Origin: Nitrospirota bacterium
Lineage (GTDB): Bacteria; Nitrospirota; Nitrospiria; Nitrospirales; NS-4
Assembly: GCA_963788195.1 (NCBI GenBank)
Contig: CAWBGA010000011.1
Location: 33,206-57,205, forward strand
Length of the DNA stretch: 24,000 nt
Direction: 5' to 3'
Numbering within the stretch: the first letter of the stretch is position 1; every line of letters starts with the position of its first letter. Shown piece after piece: positions 1-20,044 of this stretch. Made by a program: the position numbers and the translations under genes. The notes beneath the pieces are model-generated. The model had not been told where the DNA came from. It was given only the letters and a program-made list of their open reading frames with translations, and searched no databases.

Positions 1-95
1 CGGAGGAGTCTTTGTCAAGGCGTCCTATCGGGAAGATCCGCTCCGGGTAATCGATCGCCTGGACGATGTTTCCTGGTACGTCAAGTTCGGTGGTA
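1..95 (-). CDS. Pseudouridine synthase (RsuA/RluB/RluF family) catalytic-domain fragment. It continues ORF 81-332 after a 1-nt frame change and runs off the window edge.
   Basis: The reverse strand, read one base out of frame from ORF 81-332, gives (T)TELDVPGNIVQAIDYPERIFPIGRLDKDSS. This is the RLDxxS catalytic-Asp motif of this synthase family. Confidence 0.7.
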
Positions 96-320
96 CGAGA
101 TGACTCCTACAGGTTTGTGATAAGCCAAATAGACTGTTTCGGTGGCTCGCTCCAGAAGCCGACCATCAACGCTGACCACATCGTCATCCGCCACATGGTC
201 TCCGAGCACTGCTTTCCGACCATTCACTAAGACCCGCCCCTCTTCGATCAGGCGGTCCGCGGCCCGCCGCGAGCAATATCCCCGCTCCGTGAAGAACTTA
301 TTGATACGCACTGACTTCAT
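81..320 (-). CDS. S4 RNA-binding domain, N-terminal fragment of the same pseudouridine synthase
   Basis: MKSVRINKFFTERGYCSRRAADRLIEEGRVLVNGRKA... is a typical S4-domain N-terminus of RluF/RsuA-like enzymes. The ORF stops at 81-83 right after KPVGVIS, where family members continue. ATG at 320 is the likely start; GTG at 332 is also in frame. Confidence 0.85.
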   Translation of the reverse strand: MKSVRINKFFTERGYCSRRAADRLIEEGRVLVNGRKAVLGDHVADDDVVSVDGRLLERATETVYLAYHKPVGVISYHRT

Positions 321-341
321 TCCGTAGCTCACCTTGACAGG

Positions 342-968
342 TCAATCAGACGCGGTTCGACAAGCGCCCGACTCAGCCGGCTCATCGTTGAGTTCTTCAT
401 GAACTCCACGCAGCGCTTGGGCTTCTCGTGCAGCCTCCTCACATAAATCCGGTGCCCGCTCGCGAATGAATTCGATCCACCGGTCGAGCTTAATATAAAA
501 GAAGTCATAGGCTTCCTGAGCAGCGCAAGTCCCGCGAAACCAGAATTCGACAAAGTCATCGTGACTGATTCCTCGATCCTTCAATGCGCCGCAAATCTTT
601 GGGAAGAGCTCTTCAAGGTCGCCTCCCCAGTGCAGCAGTTCGTTCGGGAGGTACTCTTCGATGTACTGTCCTAGTCCCTCGCGGTCCAGTTGCGCAGACA
701 ACGGTTCAAGCAGGCTCTCCTGCACAGCCTCTTGTCCCGTGAGCACCCGGGCATATGTTCCGTACAGAGCGCATAACTGTTCAGGGGGCGCCGGCACCGT
801 TGTGCGAAGCGCCCGAATCGTGGGCTCCGGATGGGTACCTCCTACAGACGCCGGCAGTTTAAAATCCTGTTGGAGGCGACCGAATTCTTCCACAATCAAG
901 GGGATGGCCTTAGTATCGACCTCGAGGGCGATGCCTTTTAGCGAGCTCAGTCCCGGATGATCCAACAC
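342..968 (-). CDS. End of the DUF692/MNIO barrel plus a ~160-aa C-terminal extension of unknown function. It reads as a separate ORF but most likely continues 1018-1794.
   Basis: This frame stays open upstream of the GTG at 968 and reads CWIDAHSAPVPGVLWELLRRVLDHPGLSSLKGIALEVDTKAIPLIVEEF. That matches the xIDxH...VWxL...IExD C-terminal signature of DUF692 proteins. No ATG start is available. The remaining ~160 aa match no family I recognise. Confidence 0.6.
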   Translation of the reverse strand: MLDHPGLSSLKGIALEVDTKAIPLIVEEFGRLQQDFKLPASVGGTHPEPTIRALRTTVPAPPEQLCALYGTYARVLTGQEAVQESLLEPLSAQLDREGLGQYIEEYLPNELLHWGGDLEELFPKICGALKDRGISHDDFVEFWFRGTCAAQEAYDFFYIKLDRWIEFIRERAPDLCEEAAREAQALRGVHEELNDEPAESGACRTASD

Positions 969-1017
969 GCGACGCAGCAGCTCCCAAAGAACACCTGGAA
1001 CCGGCGCGCTGTGCGCA

Positions 1018-1794
1018 TCAATCCAACAGGCTCTGGATCCGCACTGCGGCCATGTCGTCCGAGCCCAGGCCGGCCAAATGAATTTGGATCACGCGATGCA
1101 GAGGGAACTCGTCCAGAAACGCGTCCGTAAAGGATTCGATGCTGTCAAAACGACTGTGCTCGCGATACCGCCATACCGTCCACAGATGTCCTATATCGAG
1201 GACAAATCCGCACGGCGCCGCCTCGGCAATGTACGCAAAAAATGCGGCGGGCGACAAGTCCCCGAAAGCTACATAGGTGAGCGGCGGGAGCTCAAGCAGC
1301 AGCAGCGGAGCGTCGTCAAACCCTGGCCTGCCTGTGGATTGTTGCAAGACCTCCTGGCACGCCGCCGCATTCGCGGCCGTCGCTTCGGCAGCCGCAATCG
1401 TGAAGAGCGGCGGCAGATAGGTTCCAAACGAGTATCCTGCGAACTGTTTGCTGGCGCATTCATGATTCACCCACGCGGCACCGATGATCTGTGCATGCCG
1501 CGCCATGCGGCGAGTTTGCTCAATCCACGGATAGCGCGTCCGCATTTCTGGATCGATGAGCCACACGCCTTCCGCATGATAGGCCATGGCGGCTTCTGGA
1601 AGGGCTCGACGAATACGAGCCAGCTCGGTGGACGGCGCCTTGAAGATTTCCAGATATTCTGGTGTGAGACCCGCGTGCCCCAGAACGCCGCACAGCTCCA
1701 CCAGGTCAGGGCTGTAGACATCGACGGAAAGACCGATACCATGCACTGGAACGCGCGCGGCCCGGGCGTAAAACTGGCGATCCCGCTGTTGCAT
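1018..1794 (-). CDS. DUF692 / MbnB-TglH-like multinuclear non-haem iron oxidase (MNIO), first ~258 aa
   Basis: Ordered landmarks of the DUF692 TIM barrel are present: VHGIGLSVD, AYHAEG, WVNHECA, LLLELPP, CGFVLDIGH and IQIHLAG. The ORF ends 15 aa after HLAG, where family members continue with the DxH motif; that motif is found in the adjacent frame. Confidence 0.75.
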   Translation of the reverse strand: MQQRDRQFYARAARVPVHGIGLSVDVYSPDLVELCGVLGHAGLTPEYLEIFKAPSTELARIRRALPEAAMAYHAEGVWLIDPEMRTRYPWIEQTRRMARHAQIIGAAWVNHECASKQFAGYSFGTYLPPLFTIAAAEATAANAAACQEVLQQSTGRPGFDDAPLLLLELPPLTYVAFGDLSPAAFFAYIAEAAPCGFVLDIGHLWTVWRYREHSRFDSIESFTDAFLDEFPLHRVIQIHLAGLGSDDMAAVRIQSLLD

Positions 1795-1800
1795 GGATGA

Positions 1801-1956
1801 TTAGGTGAAGAGCAGCTCGCTGAACTCCGACATAAAACCGTAATACAGGGGCGCAAACACTTTCAGGCTCTCGGGACTCGTCTCCTTAAGCTTCTTGAAG
1901 AACGTCACCTGTTGGCGCGGATCCAGCTGCTCCAGGAGCTTTGACAGATTAGCCAT
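1801..1956 (-). CDS. Small ORF B, 51 aa, not in the ORF track; candidate precursor or leader peptide for the MNIO
   Basis: ATG at 1956-1954, TAA at 1803-1801. Translation: MANLSKLLEQLDPRQQVTFFKKLKETSPESLKVFAPLYYGFMSEFSELLFT. Third codon positions are strongly G/C-biased, like neighbouring genes. It ends 6 nt before the MNIO ATG, and its start overlaps the stop of ORF A (ATGGCTAA). Confidence 0.5.
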   Translation of the reverse strand: MANLSKLLEQLDPRQQVTFFKKLKETSPESLKVFAPLYYGFMSEFSELLFT

Positions 1957-2131
1957 GGAGTAACGCGCCTGAAGGAATGCTCAAAACGTAATGCACCAAG
2001 CGTTCAGTGAACTGTTCAGCCACGTAGGGACTGCTGATGAGGCCCTCGGGGATTTTTCCCGAGGCCAACATTTCATGAAAAGGAATCGCTTGAGCTGCAA
2101 ATGGAGTGGAGGCGAGATGCGAGTCCGACAT
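1949..2131 (-). CDS. Small ORF A, 60 aa, hypothetical; first gene of the small-ORF/MNIO cassette
   Basis: Tracked ORF MSDSHLASTPFAAQAIPFHEMLASGKIPEGLISSPYVAEQFTERLVHYVLSIPSGALLHG. Its composition is protein-like, whereas the overlapping frame (tail of ORF 1981-2496) is R/S/P/C/W-rich. There is no obvious SD sequence; the nearest GGAGG lies ~27 nt upstream. Confidence 0.4.
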   Translation of the reverse strand: MSDSHLASTPFAAQAIPFHEMLASGKIPEGLISSPYVAEQFTERLVHYVLSIPSGALLHG

Positions 2132-2496
2132 GCTGTTTTTGGATTGGATCGAGAGGCCTCCTTCCGTAATCTACAAGAGGGGTCGTCTACAGTCAAGGAT
2201 TCAGTCGCGCCTTCACGTGCCGCAATAGCAGCCCCGATGACGCCGGCATTGCCGCCAAGGCCGGCAAGCGCAATACGGATAGGCGCGAGCTCAGTCGTAT
2301 AGACGTATTCATTGGCGGCCGCTTCCACCAATTTCAAATACGGCTTGCCCAGCGATTCCGAGACACCTCCCCCGAGCACAAAAAGCTCGGGGCTGAGAAT
2401 ATTAAAGAGATTGGCGACCGCGATGCCGAGGTACCAGGCGGAATGTCGCACGGCCTTGATGGCTAGCTTGTCACCGCTGCTCAAAGGCCTTGGCAA
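1981..2496 (-). CDS. ROK-family sugar kinase, C-terminal fragment
   Basis: GDKLAIKAVRHSAWYLGIAVANLFNILSPELFVLGGGVSE...LGGNAGVIGAAIAAREG is the C-terminal half of ROK kinases. Only ~2209-2480 looks family-like. The ~75 codons down to 1981 look non-coding and overlap ORF A, so the true stop is uncertain. Confidence 0.8.
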   Translation of the reverse strand: MPRPLSSGDKLAIKAVRHSAWYLGIAVANLFNILSPELFVLGGGVSESLGKPYLKLVEAAANEYVYTTELAPIRIALAGLGGNAGVIGAAIAAREGATESLTVDDPSCRLRKEASRSNPKTACRTRISPPLHLQLKRFLFMKCWPREKSPRASSAVPTWLNSSLNAWCITF

Positions 2497-3178
2497 GATC
2501 TGAGCTGTTCAGACGTTGGATATTTCCGCCGCGGCTCTTCTGCAAAGACGTTTTATGTCCTTCCTTTGTCCATTTTGCAAGAAGACGTTGGATAGCCGTT
2601 TTGCTCGCCTCTAATTCCAATGTGCCGCGGCGGGGGCGCTTTTCCCGAATCGTCGCATCGAGAATAATATGGCCTATCTCACCGGCATTGCGATTAGCGC
2701 CGATCACGACTTTGCCATCCACGATCACACACCCACCGATACCTGTGCCGACCCACAGGCCGATGACGCTCTGGGCGCGCTGGGCCGCACCGGCCTTGAA
2801 CTCCCCGAAGCAGGCCATGTGCACATCATTATCGACCAGCACCGGCACCCGGTAAGCAGCCTTCAGAATAGAACCCAACGGGTAATTTTTGACGGCGAGA
2901 TTGGCTGTCCGCAGGAGAACCCCTGCGGATGGATCCAAAGGACCAGGGGCGCCCACCCCGATAGCCTTGAGGGCAGATTCAGGAATTCCGGCCTCGGCTA
3001 TCGCCTCCTTGGTGGTCGCCAAAAGCTCCTCGGTCAGCCGGGCATGGCCCGCCTTGAAGGGCGTCGGCCGTTTGCCATGGCCGATGACATTGTTTTTCGC
3101 ATCCACGACAGCTGAGAGGATCTTCGTTCCTCCGATGTCGATGCCCAAAACCAGCGGTCCCTGATAGCCGTGCGCCAT
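2471..3178 (-). CDS. ROK-family sugar kinase (glucokinase-like), N-terminal fragment
   Basis: Motifs present: LVLGIDIGGTKI (DxGGT phosphate-1), VDNDVHMACFGE, GLWVGTGIGGCVIVDGKV and NAGEIGH. The likely start is ATG at 3178 (MAHGYQGPLVLGIDIGG); the tracked ORF extends to 3295. The frame breaks at ~2476 (AKAFEQ | GDKLAIKAV). Confidence 0.85.
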   Translation of the reverse strand: MAHGYQGPLVLGIDIGGTKILSAVVDAKNNVIGHGKRPTPFKAGHARLTEELLATTKEAIAEAGIPESALKAIGVGAPGPLDPSAGVLLRTANLAVKNYPLGSILKAAYRVPVLVDNDVHMACFGEFKAGAAQRAQSVIGLWVGTGIGGCVIVDGKVVIGANRNAGEIGHIILDATIREKRPRRGTLELEASKTAIQRLLAKWTKEGHKTSLQKSRGGNIQRLNSSDLAKAFEQR

Positions 3179-3315
3179 GCGGGTGTCCTTGAAATCGAAT
3201 GTGGCTCTGACGATAGCACAGCCAGTACGAGCCATCAAACCATTGGCATTCGCGTTATTCGTTGTGTAAAATGCCGCGGCCGTTGTCCCGGACACAAAAT
3301 TTCGATGGGAGAACT

Positions 3316-4224
3316 ATGGACGGTTGTGTATTGAAGGTGCTGCTGCTGGTTCTCGCTTTGCTCAGTCCTGCCGCCGCACATGCCGCGGACTCACCGATCG
3401 CGGCGGATAATGTGGTCCTGATCGTCGTGGACGGCTTCAGGCCTGACGCGATCAGGCAGGCAAAGCTTCCGAACATCCAGGGTTTCATCAAAAGCGGCTG
3501 CTCGACGATGAAAGCGCAAACCGTCGTGCCCAGTCTCACTCTCCCCGCTGTCACCTCCATGTTGACGGGGCTTCCGGTCGAGCAGCACGGCATCACTTGG
3601 AATGAGTACGAACCGATGCGAGGCTTTCTCAAGGCCCCCACTGTCTTTGAAATCGCATCATTTGCTGTTGGAAAATTGGGGGCTGTGTTTCTCAACAAGG
3701 AAAAGCTGCTGCACGTGGCAAAGCCCGACCGCGGGCTGCTGGTGCAGGTCTGCAGCGTCACTGATCCCGCATGTAACGCTCAGAAGATCGCAGGCGATGT
3801 GATTACGGCGTACAAGACATCGACCGAAGGAAAGCCATCCATGTTTCTCATCCATCTCGCTGATCCAGACTCGGCAGGTCATGAGAAAGGTTGGATGAGC
3901 CGATCGTATCTGCAGGCGCTTGAATCCACCGACCGAGCGATCGGGACGATTGTGAAAGGCTTCCACGAGCTTGGTCTCTACAAGCGGACAGCTTTCATTA
4001 TCACCTCCGACCACGGCGGCCACGATAAGACCCACGGGACCACAAGTCATGAGGACATGACGATTCCGTGGATCGCCGCCGGACCCGGCATCAAGAGCGG
4101 CTGCGAGATAAAAAGCGCCGTGTCTCTCATGGACACAGCGGCCACGGTCATGCGCGTGCTCGGCGTGAAGGAATATTATGTGGAATGGAGCAGTCGACCT
4201 ATCGCGGAGATCTTTACGGACTGA
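3316..4224 (+). CDS. Secreted type I phosphodiesterase / nucleotide pyrophosphatase (alkaline-phosphatase superfamily, ENPP-like)
   Basis: Signal peptide MDGCVLKVLLLVLALLSPAAAHA follows GGGAGA at 3307-3312. Family motifs: VVLIVVDGFRPD, PSLTLPAVTSMLTGLPVEQHGI, DPDSAGHEKG and ITSDHGGH. Confidence 0.8.
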   Translation: MDGCVLKVLLLVLALLSPAAAHAADSPIAADNVVLIVVDGFRPDAIRQAKLPNIQGFIKSGCSTMKAQTVVPSLTLPAVTSMLTGLPVEQHGITWNEYEPMRGFLKAPTVFEIASFAVGKLGAVFLNKEKLLHVAKPDRGLLVQVCSVTDPACNAQKIAGDVITAYKTSTEGKPSMFLIHLADPDSAGHEKGWMSRSYLQALESTDRAIGTIVKGFHELGLYKRTAFIITSDHGGHDKTHGTTSHEDMTIPWIAAGPGIKSGCEIKSAVSLMDTAATVMRVLGVKEYYVEWSSRPIAEIFTD

Positions 4225-15310: not shown

Positions 15311-15389
15311 TCCTTTTCCCCGGCGGCAGTATATCACGCAGTGACCTCTTTTTAGAGGGTTGCCGCGTATCTCATGCTATGTTACTCTC

Positions 15390-16496
15390 ATGCCTGACAT
15401 GCGTGAATCGGTCGATCTTCTGACTCTCTCCACTGCAGAACTTGAAGGCTTATTAAAGTCCTCTGGAGCCCCTCCGTACCGTACCGATCAGATATTACGC
15501 TGGCTCTATCAGAGACGGGTCACGGACGTGGAGTCCATGACCGACGTGCCGAAGCGGGAGCGAATGTGGCTTGCCGAGCGCGCTTCTATTTCCTTCCTCA
15601 AGATCGGCGGGATTCGTGAGGCGGTCGACGGTACACGAAAATTCGTGTTTTCGCTCGCCGACGGCCTGGCGGTTGAAAGCGTTGCGATCCCGGATGAGGG
15701 CCGCTTAACCTTGTGCCTTTCGACTCAGGTAGGCTGCACGCTCGATTGCGCTTTTTGTCTGACCGGCAGAATGGGATTGCTCCGCAATCTGAGATTTCAT
15801 GAAATCATCGGGCAGGTCCTTGCGGTGCAACGGCAACTAGGCCGGCAAGCGCTGACGAACATCGTGCTCATGGGAATGGGAGAGCCCCTCGCTAATCTCG
15901 ATGCGGTGGAAGAGGCCGTTAGTCGTCTGACGAATCGACGCTGGGGGCTTGGCTTTTCCCCGCGCCGCATCACACTCTCGACGGCTGGGCTTGCGCCGCG
16001 CCTCAAACGTGTCGCAGACATGGGTGTCAACCTTGCGGTTTCGTTGAACGCGAGCAGTGAGACTCAACGCAGTCGCCTGATGCCGGCCGCCAATCACACC
16101 TATTCTTTGAAGTCGCTCGTGGACGCCTGCAAGAAATATCCGTTAAAACCTCACCGCCGTCTCACGTTCGAATACGTCTTGCTGCGAGGCGAGAATGACA
16201 GCGTGGAAGACGCCGAGCGGGTTGCCGATCTTGTTCGGGGTATTCGCTGCAAAATCAATTTGATTCCATTTAATGAGTTCCCCGAAAGTCCATTCAGGCG
16301 TCCCTCCGACGCCTCAGTCTTGCGCTTTCAGAAAATCCTGACAGACCGTGGATTTGATGTCTTCATTCGCAAGAGCAAGGGAGAGGACGTGCTCGGGGCG
16401 TGCGGACAACTGGGCTCGCTCGAGCCCTCGCTTCTTGAACCACAGCGCAAGCGAGGCAAGCACGCTATGCCCCCACCTGCGCTTGTCTCCTCATAA
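15390..16496 (+). CDS. rlmN: Radical SAM 23S rRNA/tRNA adenine-C2 methyltransferase RlmN
   Basis: PPYRTDQILRWLYQ, the radical SAM motif GCTLDCAFCLTG, GMGEPLAN, LTFEYVLLRGENDS, INLIPFN and ACGQL. ATG at 15390; the tracked ORF starts at TTG 15360. Confidence 0.92.
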   Translation: MPDMRESVDLLTLSTAELEGLLKSSGAPPYRTDQILRWLYQRRVTDVESMTDVPKRERMWLAERASISFLKIGGIREAVDGTRKFVFSLADGLAVESVAIPDEGRLTLCLSTQVGCTLDCAFCLTGRMGLLRNLRFHEIIGQVLAVQRQLGRQALTNIVLMGMGEPLANLDAVEEAVSRLTNRRWGLGFSPRRITLSTAGLAPRLKRVADMGVNLAVSLNASSETQRSRLMPAANHTYSLKSLVDACKKYPLKPHRRLTFEYVLLRGENDSVEDAERVADLVRGIRCKINLIPFNEFPESPFRRPSDASVLRFQKILTDRGFDVFIRKSKGEDVLGACGQLGSLEPSLLEPQRKRGKHAMPPPALVSS

Positions 16497-16498
16497 GA

Positions 16499-17854
16499 AT
16501 GCTGTCCAATAGCAACAGTACCATCGGTGCCAAGAGGCTTTGTCTGTTCGCGGCGATGATGTTCTTTCTTCTGTCATCGCTCGCCGCCGCCGAAGGTCCC
16601 CGGGTACAAGAACATATACTCGCGAACGGCATGAAAGTGTTGATCGTCGAGGAGCCGAAAGCGCCTGTCATTACCGTGCAGATCTGGTACAAAGTCGGAT
16701 CGCGCAACGAGGTCATGGGCCGAGCCGGCTTGTCACATATGCTCGAGCACATGATGTTCAAGGGGACGAAGAAATACGGCAAAGGCGAATTCTCAAAGAC
16801 CATCAAGAAAAACGGCGGTAACGACAACGCCTTCACAAGCCAGGACTATACGGCCTATTTCGAAAACCTTGCCGCCGACAAGCTGGCCCTCGCCCTGGAA
16901 CTCGAATCCGACCGGCTACAAGGTCTGCTGCTCGACGACAAGGAGTTTCAGCTCGAGCGGGAAGTCGTCAAGGAAGAGCGCCGGCTTCGGACCGAAGACA
17001 ATCCCCAGGCGTACATGGTGGAGCAGATGTTCGCCCAGGCCTTCATGGAGCATCCCTATCACTGGCCGATTATCGGCTGGTTTCCTGATTTGAACGCCAT
17101 GACCCGCGAAGATCTTCAGCGACACTACGAGCAGTATTATGTTCCGAACAATGCCACGATAGTGATTGTGGGGGACGTAAAGGCAGAGACCGCCCTGCCC
17201 ATCATCAAGCAATACTTCGAAGGACTTCCGAAAGGCAGTCCTCCGCCGTTACAACAAATTGTGGATCCACCCCAGACTGGGGAACGGCGCATTGTCGTCA
17301 AGCGTGAGGCGCAGTTGCCTTTTATCTACCTCGGCTACAAAGTCCCGAATTTCAAGAGTCCGGACGTGCATGCCCTGGCCGTGCTCGAAAATATTCTCTC
17401 TTCCGGCAAAAGTTCCCGGCTGCACGACGCGCTTGTCTATCGGAAGAAGCTCGCGCTGGGGGTGGGGACAAGCTATAGCGAACTATCAGCAGATCCTGAG
17501 CTGTATACCGTATACGCCGTGGTGAGACCGGGAGCAAAGATCGAAGAGGTCGAGAAAGCCCTCTTGACGGAGATCGAACGTTTCAAGAAACAGGGCCCTA
17601 CCGCACAAGAGATGCAGAAAGCCAAAAATCAGGTAGAAGCCAGACATATCTTTGAGCAGGATTCCGTCTTCCGGCAAGCGATGCTGTTGGGTACGGCTGA
17701 AACGGTGGGCGCAGGGTGGCAGTACGTTGAGAACTATCTGGAGAATCTCCGCAAGGTGACCGAGCAGGATGTACTACGGGTCGCCCGGCAATATTTGGTT
17801 CCCGATGGGCTCACGACCGGCATTCTGGTGCCTACGGAACCCGCATCCCGATGA
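16499..17854 (+). CDS. Secreted M16 (pitrilysin-family) zinc peptidase, catalytic-type subunit
   Basis: Signal peptide (LCLFAAMMFFLLSSLAAAEG) and the inverted zinc motif HMLEHMMFKGT (HxxEH). The ORF starts 2 nt after the rlmN stop. Confidence 0.88.
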   Translation: MLSNSNSTIGAKRLCLFAAMMFFLLSSLAAAEGPRVQEHILANGMKVLIVEEPKAPVITVQIWYKVGSRNEVMGRAGLSHMLEHMMFKGTKKYGKGEFSKTIKKNGGNDNAFTSQDYTAYFENLAADKLALALELESDRLQGLLLDDKEFQLEREVVKEERRLRTEDNPQAYMVEQMFAQAFMEHPYHWPIIGWFPDLNAMTREDLQRHYEQYYVPNNATIVIVGDVKAETALPIIKQYFEGLPKGSPPPLQQIVDPPQTGERRIVVKREAQLPFIYLGYKVPNFKSPDVHALAVLENILSSGKSSRLHDALVYRKKLALGVGTSYSELSADPELYTVYAVVRPGAKIEEVEKALLTEIERFKKQGPTAQEMQKAKNQVEARHIFEQDSVFRQAMLLGTAETVGAGWQYVENYLENLRKVTEQDVLRVARQYLVPDGLTTGILVPTEPASR

Positions 17855-17991
17855 TTTCACGCGAGGCTTGTAAAGCGGGTGCCGTTTACGTCTTCTCGGT
17901 TTTTATAGCAGTCTCCTCGGCACGGGCATCGCCAAGAACAGCGAGGCGGCAGAGATCAAGCCTTCGCGCACGCTCATGCCGAATGGCTTGA
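17851..17991 (+). CDS. Signal-peptide-encoding 5' fragment of the second M16 peptidase gene
   Basis: ATG at 17851 overlaps the upstream stop (ATGA) and reads MISREACKAGAVYVFSVFIAVSSARA... The frame carrying the mature protein (..EAAEIKPSRTLMPNGL) is open from 17874 but has no start codon before 17976. Confidence 0.55.
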   Translation: MISREACKAGAVYVFSVFIAVSSARASPRTARRQRSSLRARSCRMA

Positions 17992-19223
17992 CGGTCTTGA
18001 TCCTGGACCAGCCCTTCCTCCCGATGGTGACGATCAACATCCTCGTAAAGGCGGGTGCCGTCAAGGACCCGGAGCGACTCGGGGGAGTGTCCTCGATGGT
18101 CGCAGAAATGCTGGACGAAGGCACAAAGACACGGAGTGCGACTGGGATTGCCCAGCAGATCGAGTTCATCGGAGGCGAGATGAGGTTTAGTGGGGGTGCC
18201 GATTTCAGCACCGGAACGCTCCGCGTCCTTAAGAAAGACATGGACCTGGGCATCACGCTTCTCGCGGATGCCCTTATGAATCCCGTGTTTCCCGAAAGGG
18301 AGGTGGAGCGCGTGCGCAGCGAGGTGTTAGGCGAGCTTCAAGGAGAAGGCGATCAGCCCGCTATCCTGGCCGACAAAGCCTTTGATGCGCTCGTGTTCGG
18401 GAGCCACCCCTACGCTCGGCCTGCGAATGGCACGCCGAAAAGCGTCTCTCAGATCACGCGAAAGCATCTCCTTGAATTCCACCGCACCCACTATCATCCC
18501 GACAACACGATTATTGCGGTCGTCGGCGACATCCGCGACACTGAAGCCCTGGATCTCATCAAGAAACATTTTGGCGCATGGGCCAAACGAAACTCTCCTC
18601 CCGACAAGGTCCCTCCGCCTCCGACATTGTCAAAGCCGGTGGTCAAGGTCATCGACAAAAACCTCACCCAGGCGAATATTGTCGTCGGCCATATAGGAAT
18701 CGAGCGGGCAAACCCTGATTTTTATGCCGTGTCGGTCATGAATTATATTCTGGGGGGTGGCGGATTTTCCTCCCGTCTAGTTAACCGGATTCGGGATCAG
18801 CTGGGCCTGGCCTACGACGTAGACAGCGGATTTCAGGCAAACGTGATGCCCGGTCCGTTTACCGTGCGCCTCCAAACTCGGAACGTCACCGCCAAGCAGG
18901 CCATCAGGAGTGTGATCGAAGAGATCAAGCGCATCCGCACCGAACCTATCAGTGATCAAGAACTTGCCGACGCGAAAGCATATTTGATCGGCAGCTTCCC
19001 CTTACGGCTCGACACCACTGTGAAGCTCTCCGCTTTGCTCGCGTTGATCGAGCTTCACGGGCTTGGTCTGAGCTATTTTGAGGATTATCCCAAGGCTATC
19101 GCCGCCGTGACGATAGAGGACGTTCTTCGGGTGGCGCAGAAGTATCTGCATCCCGAAGGGGTCGTGGTGTTAGCCGTCGCCAGGCAGGCCGAGGCGCAGA
19201 TCAGCCCAGAGATTGTCCAGTGA
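17976..19223 (+). CDS. M16-family peptidase, non-catalytic-type subunit (no HxxEH)
   Basis: It has the M16 fold pattern (LPNGLTVLILDQP..., two-domain length), but the zinc motif position reads VAEMLDEGT. It is paired with the HxxEH-bearing gene upstream. The true start is probably 17851, via a frame change near 17925-17945. Confidence 0.8.
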   Translation: MPNGLTVLILDQPFLPMVTINILVKAGAVKDPERLGGVSSMVAEMLDEGTKTRSATGIAQQIEFIGGEMRFSGGADFSTGTLRVLKKDMDLGITLLADALMNPVFPEREVERVRSEVLGELQGEGDQPAILADKAFDALVFGSHPYARPANGTPKSVSQITRKHLLEFHRTHYHPDNTIIAVVGDIRDTEALDLIKKHFGAWAKRNSPPDKVPPPPTLSKPVVKVIDKNLTQANIVVGHIGIERANPDFYAVSVMNYILGGGGFSSRLVNRIRDQLGLAYDVDSGFQANVMPGPFTVRLQTRNVTAKQAIRSVIEEIKRIRTEPISDQELADAKAYLIGSFPLRLDTTVKLSALLALIELHGLGLSYFEDYPKAIAAVTIEDVLRVAQKYLHPEGVVVLAVARQAEAQISPEIVQ

Positions 19224-20044
19224 ACTTCGCCGGCTCTCAGAATAATGACACACTGGGCCGGCTCAGGGGGATCATGTCCGATCTTGGCTCTGCCCTGATT
19301 GCTTTCTCTGGAGGCATTGACAGCACGGTGGTGTTAAAGCTGGCGCATGACGCCTTAGGAGACCGTGCCCTAGCCGTCACCGCTGTGTCCCCTACATATC
19401 CGGCATTGGAGCTCGACCTGGCAAGCCGACTCTGCCGGACCATCGGTGTGCGTCACGTGATTCACAACACGGACCAGTTACGCGATGCCGAATTCGTTCG
19501 AAACACGGCCTCCCGATGCTATCGATGCAAGACAGACCTGTATTCGGCGCTCGTACCCCTTGCCGAACGCATGGGGTTCGCACACGTCTGCGACGGTGCG
19601 CAGATGGATGATCTCGGAGATGATCGACCGGGAATGAAAGCCGCGCACGAGTACCGCGTGCGAAGCCCCTTACTCGAAGCCGGCCTCGGCAAGGAGGCCG
19701 TCCGGACTGCAGGGCGACTCCTTGGTTTGCCGAACTGGGACAAGCCCGCAGCCGCCTGTCTTTCTTCCCGCATTGCGCGCGGTGAGCTGATCACGCTCGA
19801 TCGATTGAAACGCGTCGAAGAGGCTGAAGCCTATCTGCTTCACGAGGGGTTTCGTCAGGTCCGCGTGCGGGACTACTCCGGCAGGGCGCGCGTGGAGGTA
19901 GGCCAGGATGAGTTGGACCGGCTGTTCGAGCCCCTGCTGCGAAATCGCGTGATGGTCACGCTCGAGGTGCTTGGATTTATACAGGTGACCTTGGACCCCG
20001 CGGGTTACCGGCAGGGCGGCACAAACCCGACTGCCGGGACCTAG
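19220..20044 (+). CDS. larE: LarE-like PP-loop ATP pyrophosphatase / sulfur transferase (TIGR00268 family)
   Basis: PP-loop AFSGGIDSTVV, CYRCK, and DKPAAACLSSRI (the position of the LarE sulfur-donor Cys). The GTG start overlaps the upstream stop (GTGA). Confidence 0.75.
   Translation: MNFAGSQNNDTLGRLRGIMSDLGSALIAFSGGIDSTVVLKLAHDALGDRALAVTAVSPTYPALELDLASRLCRTIGVRHVIHNTDQLRDAEFVRNTASRCYRCKTDLYSALVPLAERMGFAHVCDGAQMDDLGDDRPGMKAAHEYRVRSPLLEAGLGKEAVRTAGRLLGLPNWDKPAAACLSSRIARGELITLDRLKRVEEAEAYLLHEGFRQVRVRDYSGRARVEVGQDELDRLFEPLLRNRVMVTLEVLGFIQVTLDPAGYRQGGTNPTAGT

Follow-up and report, generated by a model that had tools for sequence, protein, structure and literature searches.

Introduction

Enzymes of the MNIO (DUF692) family are known for producing secreted peptide metallophores and natural products, mostly derived from cysteine, and lineages related to Nitrospira are the main nitrite oxidisers. 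Here we describe a gene for an MNIO of about 480 aa (MNIO-480) and the small gene upstream of it (p109), located in a 24,000-nt stretch of a Nitrospirota bacterium (assembly GCA_963788195.1, contig CAWBGA010000011.1, positions 33,206 to 57,205), hereafter called the window. An earlier sequence-only reading of this stretch had proposed that two small open reading frames (ORFs) and the enzyme form a compact cassette for a peptide made on the ribosome and modified after translation (RiPP).

MNIO chemistry is also described on residues other than Cys: the targets are Asp for ApyH, Asn for MovX, and Phe for PbsC, and the substrate gene usually precedes the MNIO gene (PMC12452194). HvfA is an MNIO substrate of ~95 aa (PMC11252979). 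The iron ligands of VcMbnB are His55, His91, Glu135, Asp165, Asn168, His194, Asp209/His211, and Glu238 (PMC8888699). Our literature search found no paper linking Nitrospira with MNIO or DUF692; the MNIO landscape survey of 2025 makes no mention of Nitrospira, and among the groups in the sections covered none matches MNIO-480.

Anatomy of the p109-MNIO locus

At this locus lies a copy, damaged in assembly, of an operon conserved in Nitrospirales, in which a promoter is followed by p109, MNIO-480, an rluF-like gene and, in relatives, the gene for 6-phosphogluconolactonase (6PGL); we hold this anatomy to be very nearly certain. Positions are numbered over the full 24,000 nt, and the genes of the MNIO locus all lie on the minus strand:

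2168..2196, minus strand: sigma-70-type promoter of p109 (TTGACT, 17-nt spacer, TAGATT; 9/12 in a consensus scan)
1801..2131, minus strand: p109 gene, 109 codons; a 1-nt insertion near 1967 divides it into the 60-aa and 51-aa ORFs
860..1794, minus strand: MNIO (DUF692) TIM-barrel part of the ~480-aa protein, matched by PF05114; frameshift between ~1021 and 1080
801..859, minus strand: variable linker from the barrel to the C-terminal domain; low-confidence part at ~801-845, columns unconserved
345..800, minus strand: family-specific C-terminal domain of the MNIO, ~150 aa, predicted all-helical, recognised from the predicted local distance difference test (pLDDT) and invariant columns
1..332, minus strand: 5' part of an RluF/RluB-like (RsuA-family) pseudouridine synthase gene with an S4 domain; next gene of the operon, running beyond the window edge
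2209..3181, minus strand: upstream gene for a ROK-family sugar kinase; Pfam ROK match split over two ORFs, frameshifted near 2485

The relatives L001, L002, and L004 carry, directly upstream of the MNIO gene, a single 109-aa ORF (330-nt gene) that belongs to no Pfam family, and comparison of the translations showed that this protein corresponds to the 60-aa ORF of the window joined to the 51-aa ORF. DNA alignment placed one extra base in the window near 1967 (TCAGGCGCGTTACTCC, compared with TCAGG-GTCATACTCC in the relatives), and a one-base deletion restored a 109-aa p109 that is identical to that of L001 at 101/109 positions. In the same way, DNA alignment and tblastn traced the break in the enzyme gene to a single additional base near 1047, where the MNIO has a variable loop.

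What the sequence-only reading had seen in the letters is there: the minus-strand ORFs at 1018-1794 (258 aa), 342-968 (208 aa), 1801-1956 (51 aa), and 1949-2131 (60 aa), the ATGGCTAA overlap of the two small ORFs, the 6-nt gap before the enzyme's ATG, the lack of Cys in both small ORFs, and the flanking ROK kinase and S4/pseudouridine synthase genes. Its suspicion that the enzyme continues in another frame was also borne out, the homologues being unbroken and the product one protein of ~480 aa. The two small genes, however, dissolve into a single gene of 109 codons in the relatives, interrupted in the window by the 1-nt insertion, and the proposed substrate or leader peptides become the two parts of a single 109-aa protein, predicted to fold and conserved over its whole length. 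We therefore give next to no credence to separate 60-aa and 51-aa peptides acting as precursors or leaders of a compact RiPP cassette: the literal ORFs and their overlap are present in the window, but all relatives have one uninterrupted gene, the junction of the ORFs is the insertion itself, the whole p109 length is under purifying selection in one frame, and the window is full of similar frameshifts.

At least seven window genes are frameshifted, namely the rluF-like gene (~97), MNIO (~1047), p109 (~1967), ROK (~2485), a NAD-epimerase gene (~6090), xseA (~8520), and a TPR/SLT transglycosylase gene (~14470). The rluF-like and ROK genes were each matched in two frames by tblastn. The exact split products have been deposited from a single NCBI/ENA contig of 71,364 nt, so the errors sit in the deposited assembly, and we read the frameshifts as assembly indels. 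This reading leaves without explanation that four of the seven fall in four consecutive genes of the first 3.3 kb. If the frameshifts were instead real, ROK, p109, MNIO, and rluF would be decaying in this organism; such decay would account for one frameshift in each of the four neighbours, a density above that of the rest of the window (three in ~20 kb), and the indels lie outside homopolymer runs. Nevertheless, the unrelated housekeeping genes xseA, epimerase, and SLT are broken too, each broken gene carries a single indel with neither stops nor deletions, and the window p109 compared with that of L001 (0.044 nonsynonymous, pN, and 0.39 synonymous, pS, differences per site) gives no sign of relaxed selection, which makes decay very unlikely. 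Small-ORF "cassettes" of indel-rich assemblies should accordingly be viewed with caution, as they can be frameshift artefacts.

The motif TTGAC[T/G]-N17-TAGA[T/G]T was found ~40-60 nt upstream of p109 in 18/18 relatives inspected, in both genomic settings in which p109 occurs and whichever genes lie upstream. In the window this promoter (2196-2168) overlaps the open frame that runs on from the broken ROK gene. An Rfam search of positions 1-3400 (E<=0.1) revealed no structured RNA upstream.

MNIO-480 is a divergent DUF692 barrel with a fused helical domain

Judged from its sequence, MNIO-480 is a real, divergent DUF692 barrel that retains the ligand motifs and is fused to a helical domain specific to its family; it is a member of the MNIO superfamily outside every characterised MNIO subfamily. 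The frame-repaired 483-aa protein matched PF05114 (MbnB_TglH_ChrH) with 54.5 bits (E 1.3e-14, cutoff 25), which settles in favour of the sequence-only reading the assignment it had made to DUF692. The 258-aa N-fragment alone scored 34 bits and the next-frame continuation was matched weakly, while the unbroken homologues P0001 and P0074 scored 46-51 bits. A weak secondary match to the AP_endonuc_2 / xylose-isomerase TIM barrel was also obtained. P0001 fell far below the NCBIfam equivalog cutoffs for BufB (38/310 bits), ApyH (30/400), HvfB (23/360), and ChrH (13/600), and the similarity of the MNIO to chains in the Protein Data Bank (PDB) is remote (E 1e-3 to 1). Homologues are single proteins of ~470-520 aa, with >1,000 matches (sequence clusters), the best of them 82% identical.

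The six barrel motifs that had been pointed out in the 258-aa ORF occur there in order, and WIDAH, VLWELL, and IALEVD follow in the next frame. Within the family, the ligand motifs D..H, HLAG, DxH, and ExD are invariant or near-invariant. When aligned with VcMbnB, the PDB entry 3bww, and TglH, the motifs LDIGH, IHLAG, and WIDAH fall on the positions of VcMbnB Asp165, His194, and Asp209/His211, with IHLAG corresponding to IHIAG and WIDAH to LVDTH of 3bww. The His three residues after the Asp of LDIGH takes the D+3 position, which is Asn in 3bww (LDVNN) and Asn168 in the VcMbnB list. AYH, NHE, LLE, and ALEVD vary little or not at all and stand in the right order, the first three being assigned to ligand positions by motif order only; ALEVD retains the Glu and the catalytic Asp.

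The C-terminal domain was modelled with a pLDDT of 86-98 over most of its length and is preceded by a linker with pLDDT <50 (residues 61-75 of the C-fragment model). It has 20 invariant columns, including those of YLPxExLxWGGDLxELFP and YDFFxxKL. No Pfam family, PF09836 (DUF2063) included, matched the domain of the repaired protein at E<=10, and 21 isolated C-terminal domains gave scattered single-member Pfam matches only (E>=0.02; PF09836 once, E=0.1). Profile search against the PDB found no relative of the domain, and the best Foldseek match had E 3. No gene for a separate partner was present in the MNIO neighbourhood. Since the domain has no known relatives, the idea of a fused partner draws solely on the analogy with MovX.

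p109 is a strongly conserved, predicted-folded orphan protein

The search with p109 yielded 544 homologues, and the best 120 of these 544 are 71-97% identical to the repaired window protein and nearly all exactly 109 aa long. At the same loci, identity was 77-94% for p109, 51-62% for the MNIO, 63-83% for the pseudouridine synthase, and 51-67% for 6PGL. The strong purifying selection on p109 (pS 0.4-0.98, saturated; pN 0.04-0.24; dN/dS 0.03-0.2 where computable) covers its whole length in one frame. A profile search of 1.84 billion representative proteins returned 37 p109 matches. Most are fragments of one cluster; a single 50% cluster is full-length, and some members are divergent, among them P0339, P0342, and P0348.

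AlphaFold2 predicted five helices (mean pLDDT 82.8, predicted template modelling score 0.75), and the "aromatic/acidic tail" that the sequence-only reading had noted is the last helix of this model. Inspection revealed no recognisable signal peptide. Pfam and NCBIfam searches gave no match for p109, and Foldseek against the PDB gave nothing significant, the best hits (E 0.7) being unspecific helical repeats.

Two candidate relationships were rejected. An origin of p109 as a paralogue of the MNIO C-terminal domain received an hhalign probability of 0.3%, and a 405-aa "fusion" in the 90% cluster of the 51-aa fragment (P0388/P0390) proved to be an IS110-like transposase, a clustering artefact.

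Two divergent relatives were also observed. P0339 (160 aa; L102:8001-8483) is extended at its C-terminus and keeps its place after the NxrAB-like pair described below. P0348 (176 aa; L100:2898-3428, GCA_022599525.1) has an N-terminal extension and no YYGFM..LLFT tail; at its locus, two unknown genes lie upstream, and no MNIO start was found in the 400 nt downstream.

Genomic context of the MNIO gene in relatives

The context set comprised 80 metagenome loci plus others and contained 75 distinct loci, which we divided by MNIO identity to P0001 into clade A (>=49%) and clade B (36-46%):

Clade A, 23 loci, includes the window: p109, MNIO, RluF/RluB-like pseudouridine synthase, 6PGL
Clade B, 52 loci, without the window: LOG-like gene on the opposite strand, then MNIO, DusB-like gene, Maf

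In clade A, p109 was directly upstream of the MNIO gene on the same strand in 17/17 distinct loci with upstream DNA, with MNIO identities of 51-100% and a gap of 6-83 nt in 16 of the 17. The gap is 929 nt in L032, where an opposite-strand Sel1-repeat gene has been inserted; this gene (L032:2513-3151) encodes a Sel1-like repeat protein of 212 aa with a hydrophobic N-terminal segment. In clade B, p109 was near the MNIO gene in 0/52 loci. There, the divergent gene upstream is ~100 nt away and dus abuts downstream, leaving no room for another small ORF, and no other small ORF was found near the enzyme in either clade. The ROK kinase lies outside the conserved module, its gene missing from L002/L003. 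The L001 orthologue of the rluF-like gene scored 265 bits to RluF (cutoff 318).

The sequence-only reading had also remarked that no protease or exporter is nearby, and this holds beyond the window: the conserved neighbourhood (CutA1, M23 peptidase, phosphodiesterase, ROK, pseudouridine synthase, and 6PGL, or LOG-like, Dus, and Maf) contains no leader protease or exporter. The locus gives no support to a classical RiPP cassette, as a short precursor, obligatory adjacency, conserved Cys, a protease, and an exporter are missing and no partner is recognisable.

The downstream gene for RNA modification starts no more than ~45 nt from the MNIO stop or overlaps it in 75/75 loci. One could place MNIO-480 in RNA or translation biology, with a target among ribosomal proteins, RNA-modification proteins, or substrates other than peptides; on such a view, it shares a transcript with uridine-modifying enzymes in every case. 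In 23/23 clade-A loci the MNIO stop touches or overlaps the RluF/RluB-like gene, and in 52/52 clade-B loci it abuts the DusB-like gene, followed by maf; the weak AP_endonuc_2 / xylose-isomerase match points in the same direction. However, gene order is the basis of this reading, and it comes from two syntenic blocks passed on vertically, so that it amounts to effectively two independent observations. Moreover, the characterised MNIOs all act on peptides or proteins (PMC12452194), and we consider a role of this kind quite improbable.

Elsewhere in the window (15360-20044, plus strand), and outside the conserved MNIO neighbourhood, two M16 (insulinase-type) peptidase genes and a PP-loop ATPase gene come after one for an RlmN-like radical-SAM methyltransferase.

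p109 follows NxrAB-like genes in Nitrospira-type genomes

In Nitrospira-type genomes, p109 was found after a pair of genes whose products score best to type-II DMSO reductase subunits, an alpha subunit of 1145 aa and a beta subunit of 429 aa, which from their size and the organism we take to be NxrA/NxrB. This arrangement was present in L090 (Nitrospira sp. Kam-Ns4a, 3.9 Mb), L092/93, L094-97, L098/99, and L102 (2.5-Mb contig); in L103/104 the contig breaks where the pair would be. At L090:210-6776, and likewise in L092, L094, L098, and L102, p109 is the next conserved gene after the NxrA/NxrB-sized pair. What is inserted between nxrB and p109 differs among loci: a gene for a 4HB_MCP protein, one for a B12-radical-SAM enzyme, or nothing. 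Beyond p109 lie the orphans p122 (122-128 aa) and p94 (~94 aa), then Trm112 on the opposite strand, DUF502, and a GNAT acetyltransferase.

The orphans p122 and p94 are absent from the clade-A loci, and NxrAB-like genes were found neither in the 24-kb window nor within 6 kb in clade A. Our literature search found nothing on genes after nxrB. The B12-radical-SAM and LOG-like genes were considered as a third, shared link and rejected; they are only 23% and 40% identical, respectively, and therefore paralogues.

All named matches of the p109 and MNIO families come from Nitrospir* taxa, most matches carrying no name, and both families appear confined to Nitrospirales.

Functional relationship between p109 and MNIO-480

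In our best reading, MNIO-480 is a new variant among the MNIOs whose target would be a protein; p109 is the leading but unproven candidate. The enzyme is predicted to be an O2-dependent multi-iron oxidase whose substrate would be a protein, not a leader-core peptide; the fused C-terminal domain would recruit this substrate, as a separate partner does in other MNIO systems. The most likely substrate would be p109, modified on a residue other than Cys. As candidate sites we see the aromatic tail PLYYGFMxEFxxLLFT, which is invariant, and the PFAAQAxPF segment conserved near the N-terminus. Because no protease or exporter accompanies the genes, modified p109 would stay inside the cell.

A functional link is suggested by the clade-A adjacency, kept through a deep clade, by the apparently identical narrow distribution of the two families, by the position of p109 before the MNIO gene, which matches the usual substrate-first order, by the lack of another small ORF beside the enzyme in both clades, and by the precedents for substrates that are Cys-free or protein-sized and for MNIOs without a partner. 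The case for it is moderate, and the case against is also substantial. Several observations speak against p109 as a substrate linked to the enzyme. In clade A, the housekeeping genes around the pair keep their order at least as firmly as p109 and the MNIO gene keep their adjacency; this adjacency is interrupted by the 929-nt gap in L032, and it does not extend to any of the 52 clade-B loci. Six independent Nitrospira-type contexts of p109 have no MNIO within 6-9 kb, and the organism names suggest that the same Nitrospira genomes also possess a clade-B MNIO. p109 also differs from leader-core precursors: its whole chain is predicted to be folded, conservation runs from one end to the other, and it is 72-97% identical across matches in which the MNIO is 43-82% identical. 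There is no conserved Cys in 47 aligned p109 sequences, a few of which have Cys at one variable position, and the C-terminal domain of MNIO-480 has no detectable similarity to the known partners (DUF2063, TglI, and MbnC).

Two proposals of the sequence-only reading accordingly survive in part. It had supposed that the extra C-terminal region replaces a partner: the long extra region and the lack of a separate partner gene stand, while homology to MbnC, TglI, or DUF2063 found no support and the idea is left as one of analogy. It had also asked for conserved, adjacent small ORFs in relatives; purifying selection and adjacency in all 17 informative clade-A loci agree with this, but the clade-B loci and the Nitrospira-type genomes, where p109 lies elsewhere, do not. 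Taken together, a functional link of any kind between p109 and MNIO-480 is tentative, somewhat short of an even chance, and p109 being specifically the substrate of MNIO-480 is rather doubtful.

Alternatively, the two genes may be functionally unrelated neighbours whose clade-A adjacency is inherited synteny, a serious possibility that we would nonetheless not call probable. p109 would then be a small Nitrospirales-specific protein, expressed at a high level, that is either connected with nitrite oxidoreductase or energy metabolism or acts as a general regulator, and the substrate of MNIO-480 would be encoded elsewhere. This is consistent with the position of p109 after the alpha/beta pair in Nitrospira-type loci, the retention of its own promoter in every context, its absence from the clade-B loci, the gene inserted between p109 and MNIO in L032, and the synteny of the whole clade-A neighbourhood. 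It accords less well with a 6-7 nt gap that is kept down to 51% MNIO identity and with named matches of both families from the same order. In addition, p109 lies >240 nt to 2 kb from nxrB with variable inserted genes in between, and is therefore no integral member of the nxr operon.

A further role for p109 would be that of a partner or adaptor of the MNIO, comparable to MbnC, TglI, or a helical PME-type 2 protein, with the real substrate encoded elsewhere. Its small size, its predicted all-helical fold, and a conservation that fits a protein-protein interface agree with such a role, and short (115-aa) helical PME-type 2 partners are described (PMC12452194). Against this, the same source has known partner genes usually following the MNIO gene, MNIO-480 already possesses an extra domain, and p109 is unlinked from the MNIO in clade B; TglI, MbnC, and 3dee are not among the 50 Foldseek PDB matches listed for p109, none of which is significant. 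We regard a partner role as having little probability.

Joining the preferred reading, a non-Cys modification added by MNIO-480, with the second setting of p109 gives a more specific proposal, in which intracellular, modified p109 works with nitrite oxidoreductase or energy metabolism in Nitrospira; this version is unlikely, though worth stating. If the p109-MNIO link is true, it would carry MNIO chemistry over to intracellular protein maturation, a housekeeping role, and would hint at an unrecognised conserved component of nitrifier physiology. The MNIO-480 subfamily is spread over many Nitrospira-related lineages, as far as the match names show, and its candidate partner p109 is a strongly conserved orphan located just after key nitrification genes in Nitrospira-type genomes. 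Even without a link, a well-defined uncharacterised enzyme subfamily and an orphan protein family remain.

Comparison with known MNIO systems

MbnB/MbnC and TglH/TglI share with MNIO-480 the barrel family, aligned equivalents of Asp165, His194, and Asp209/His211, and the E-x-D motif (PMC8888699). They differ in that MNIO-480 has His at the Asn168 position and neither an MbnC/TglI homologue nor a Cys substrate.

PbsC/PbsD (biphenomycin-like) and ApyH/ApyI resemble the proposed system in having Phe or Asp targets, so that Cys-free substrates are possible (PMC12452194; PMC12257519). Their substrates are short leader-core peptides of ~45 aa, unlike p109, and they employ separate PME-type 2 partners and further tailoring enzymes.

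HvfB/HvfC/HvfA (oxazolin) and BufB/BufC/BufA (bufferin) are similar in the ~95-aa product whose gene stands before the enzyme gene (PMC11252979; PMC12452194). HvfA and BufA, in contrast to p109, are made with Sec signal peptides, contain repeated Cys motifs, and depend on a partner with DUF2063 and a RiPP recognition element; p109/MNIO-480 has no signal peptide, conserved Cys, or DUF2063 partner.

MovX, from a Vibrio methanobactin-like cluster, is an MNIO with a fused extra domain, without a separate partner, and with a non-Cys target, a C-terminal Asn (PMC12452194). Its extra domain is a winged helix-turn-helix, whereas that of MNIO-480 is a ~150-aa predicted helical domain with no detectable relative; and MovX belongs to a RiPP cluster with a short precursor, whereas MNIO-480 is encoded in a housekeeping operon next to a predicted-folded 109-aa candidate substrate. 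By analogy, MovX, with its fused domain, lack of a partner, and non-Cys chemistry, and HvfABC, with its ~95-aa substrate, would be the closest counterparts of p109 and MNIO-480.

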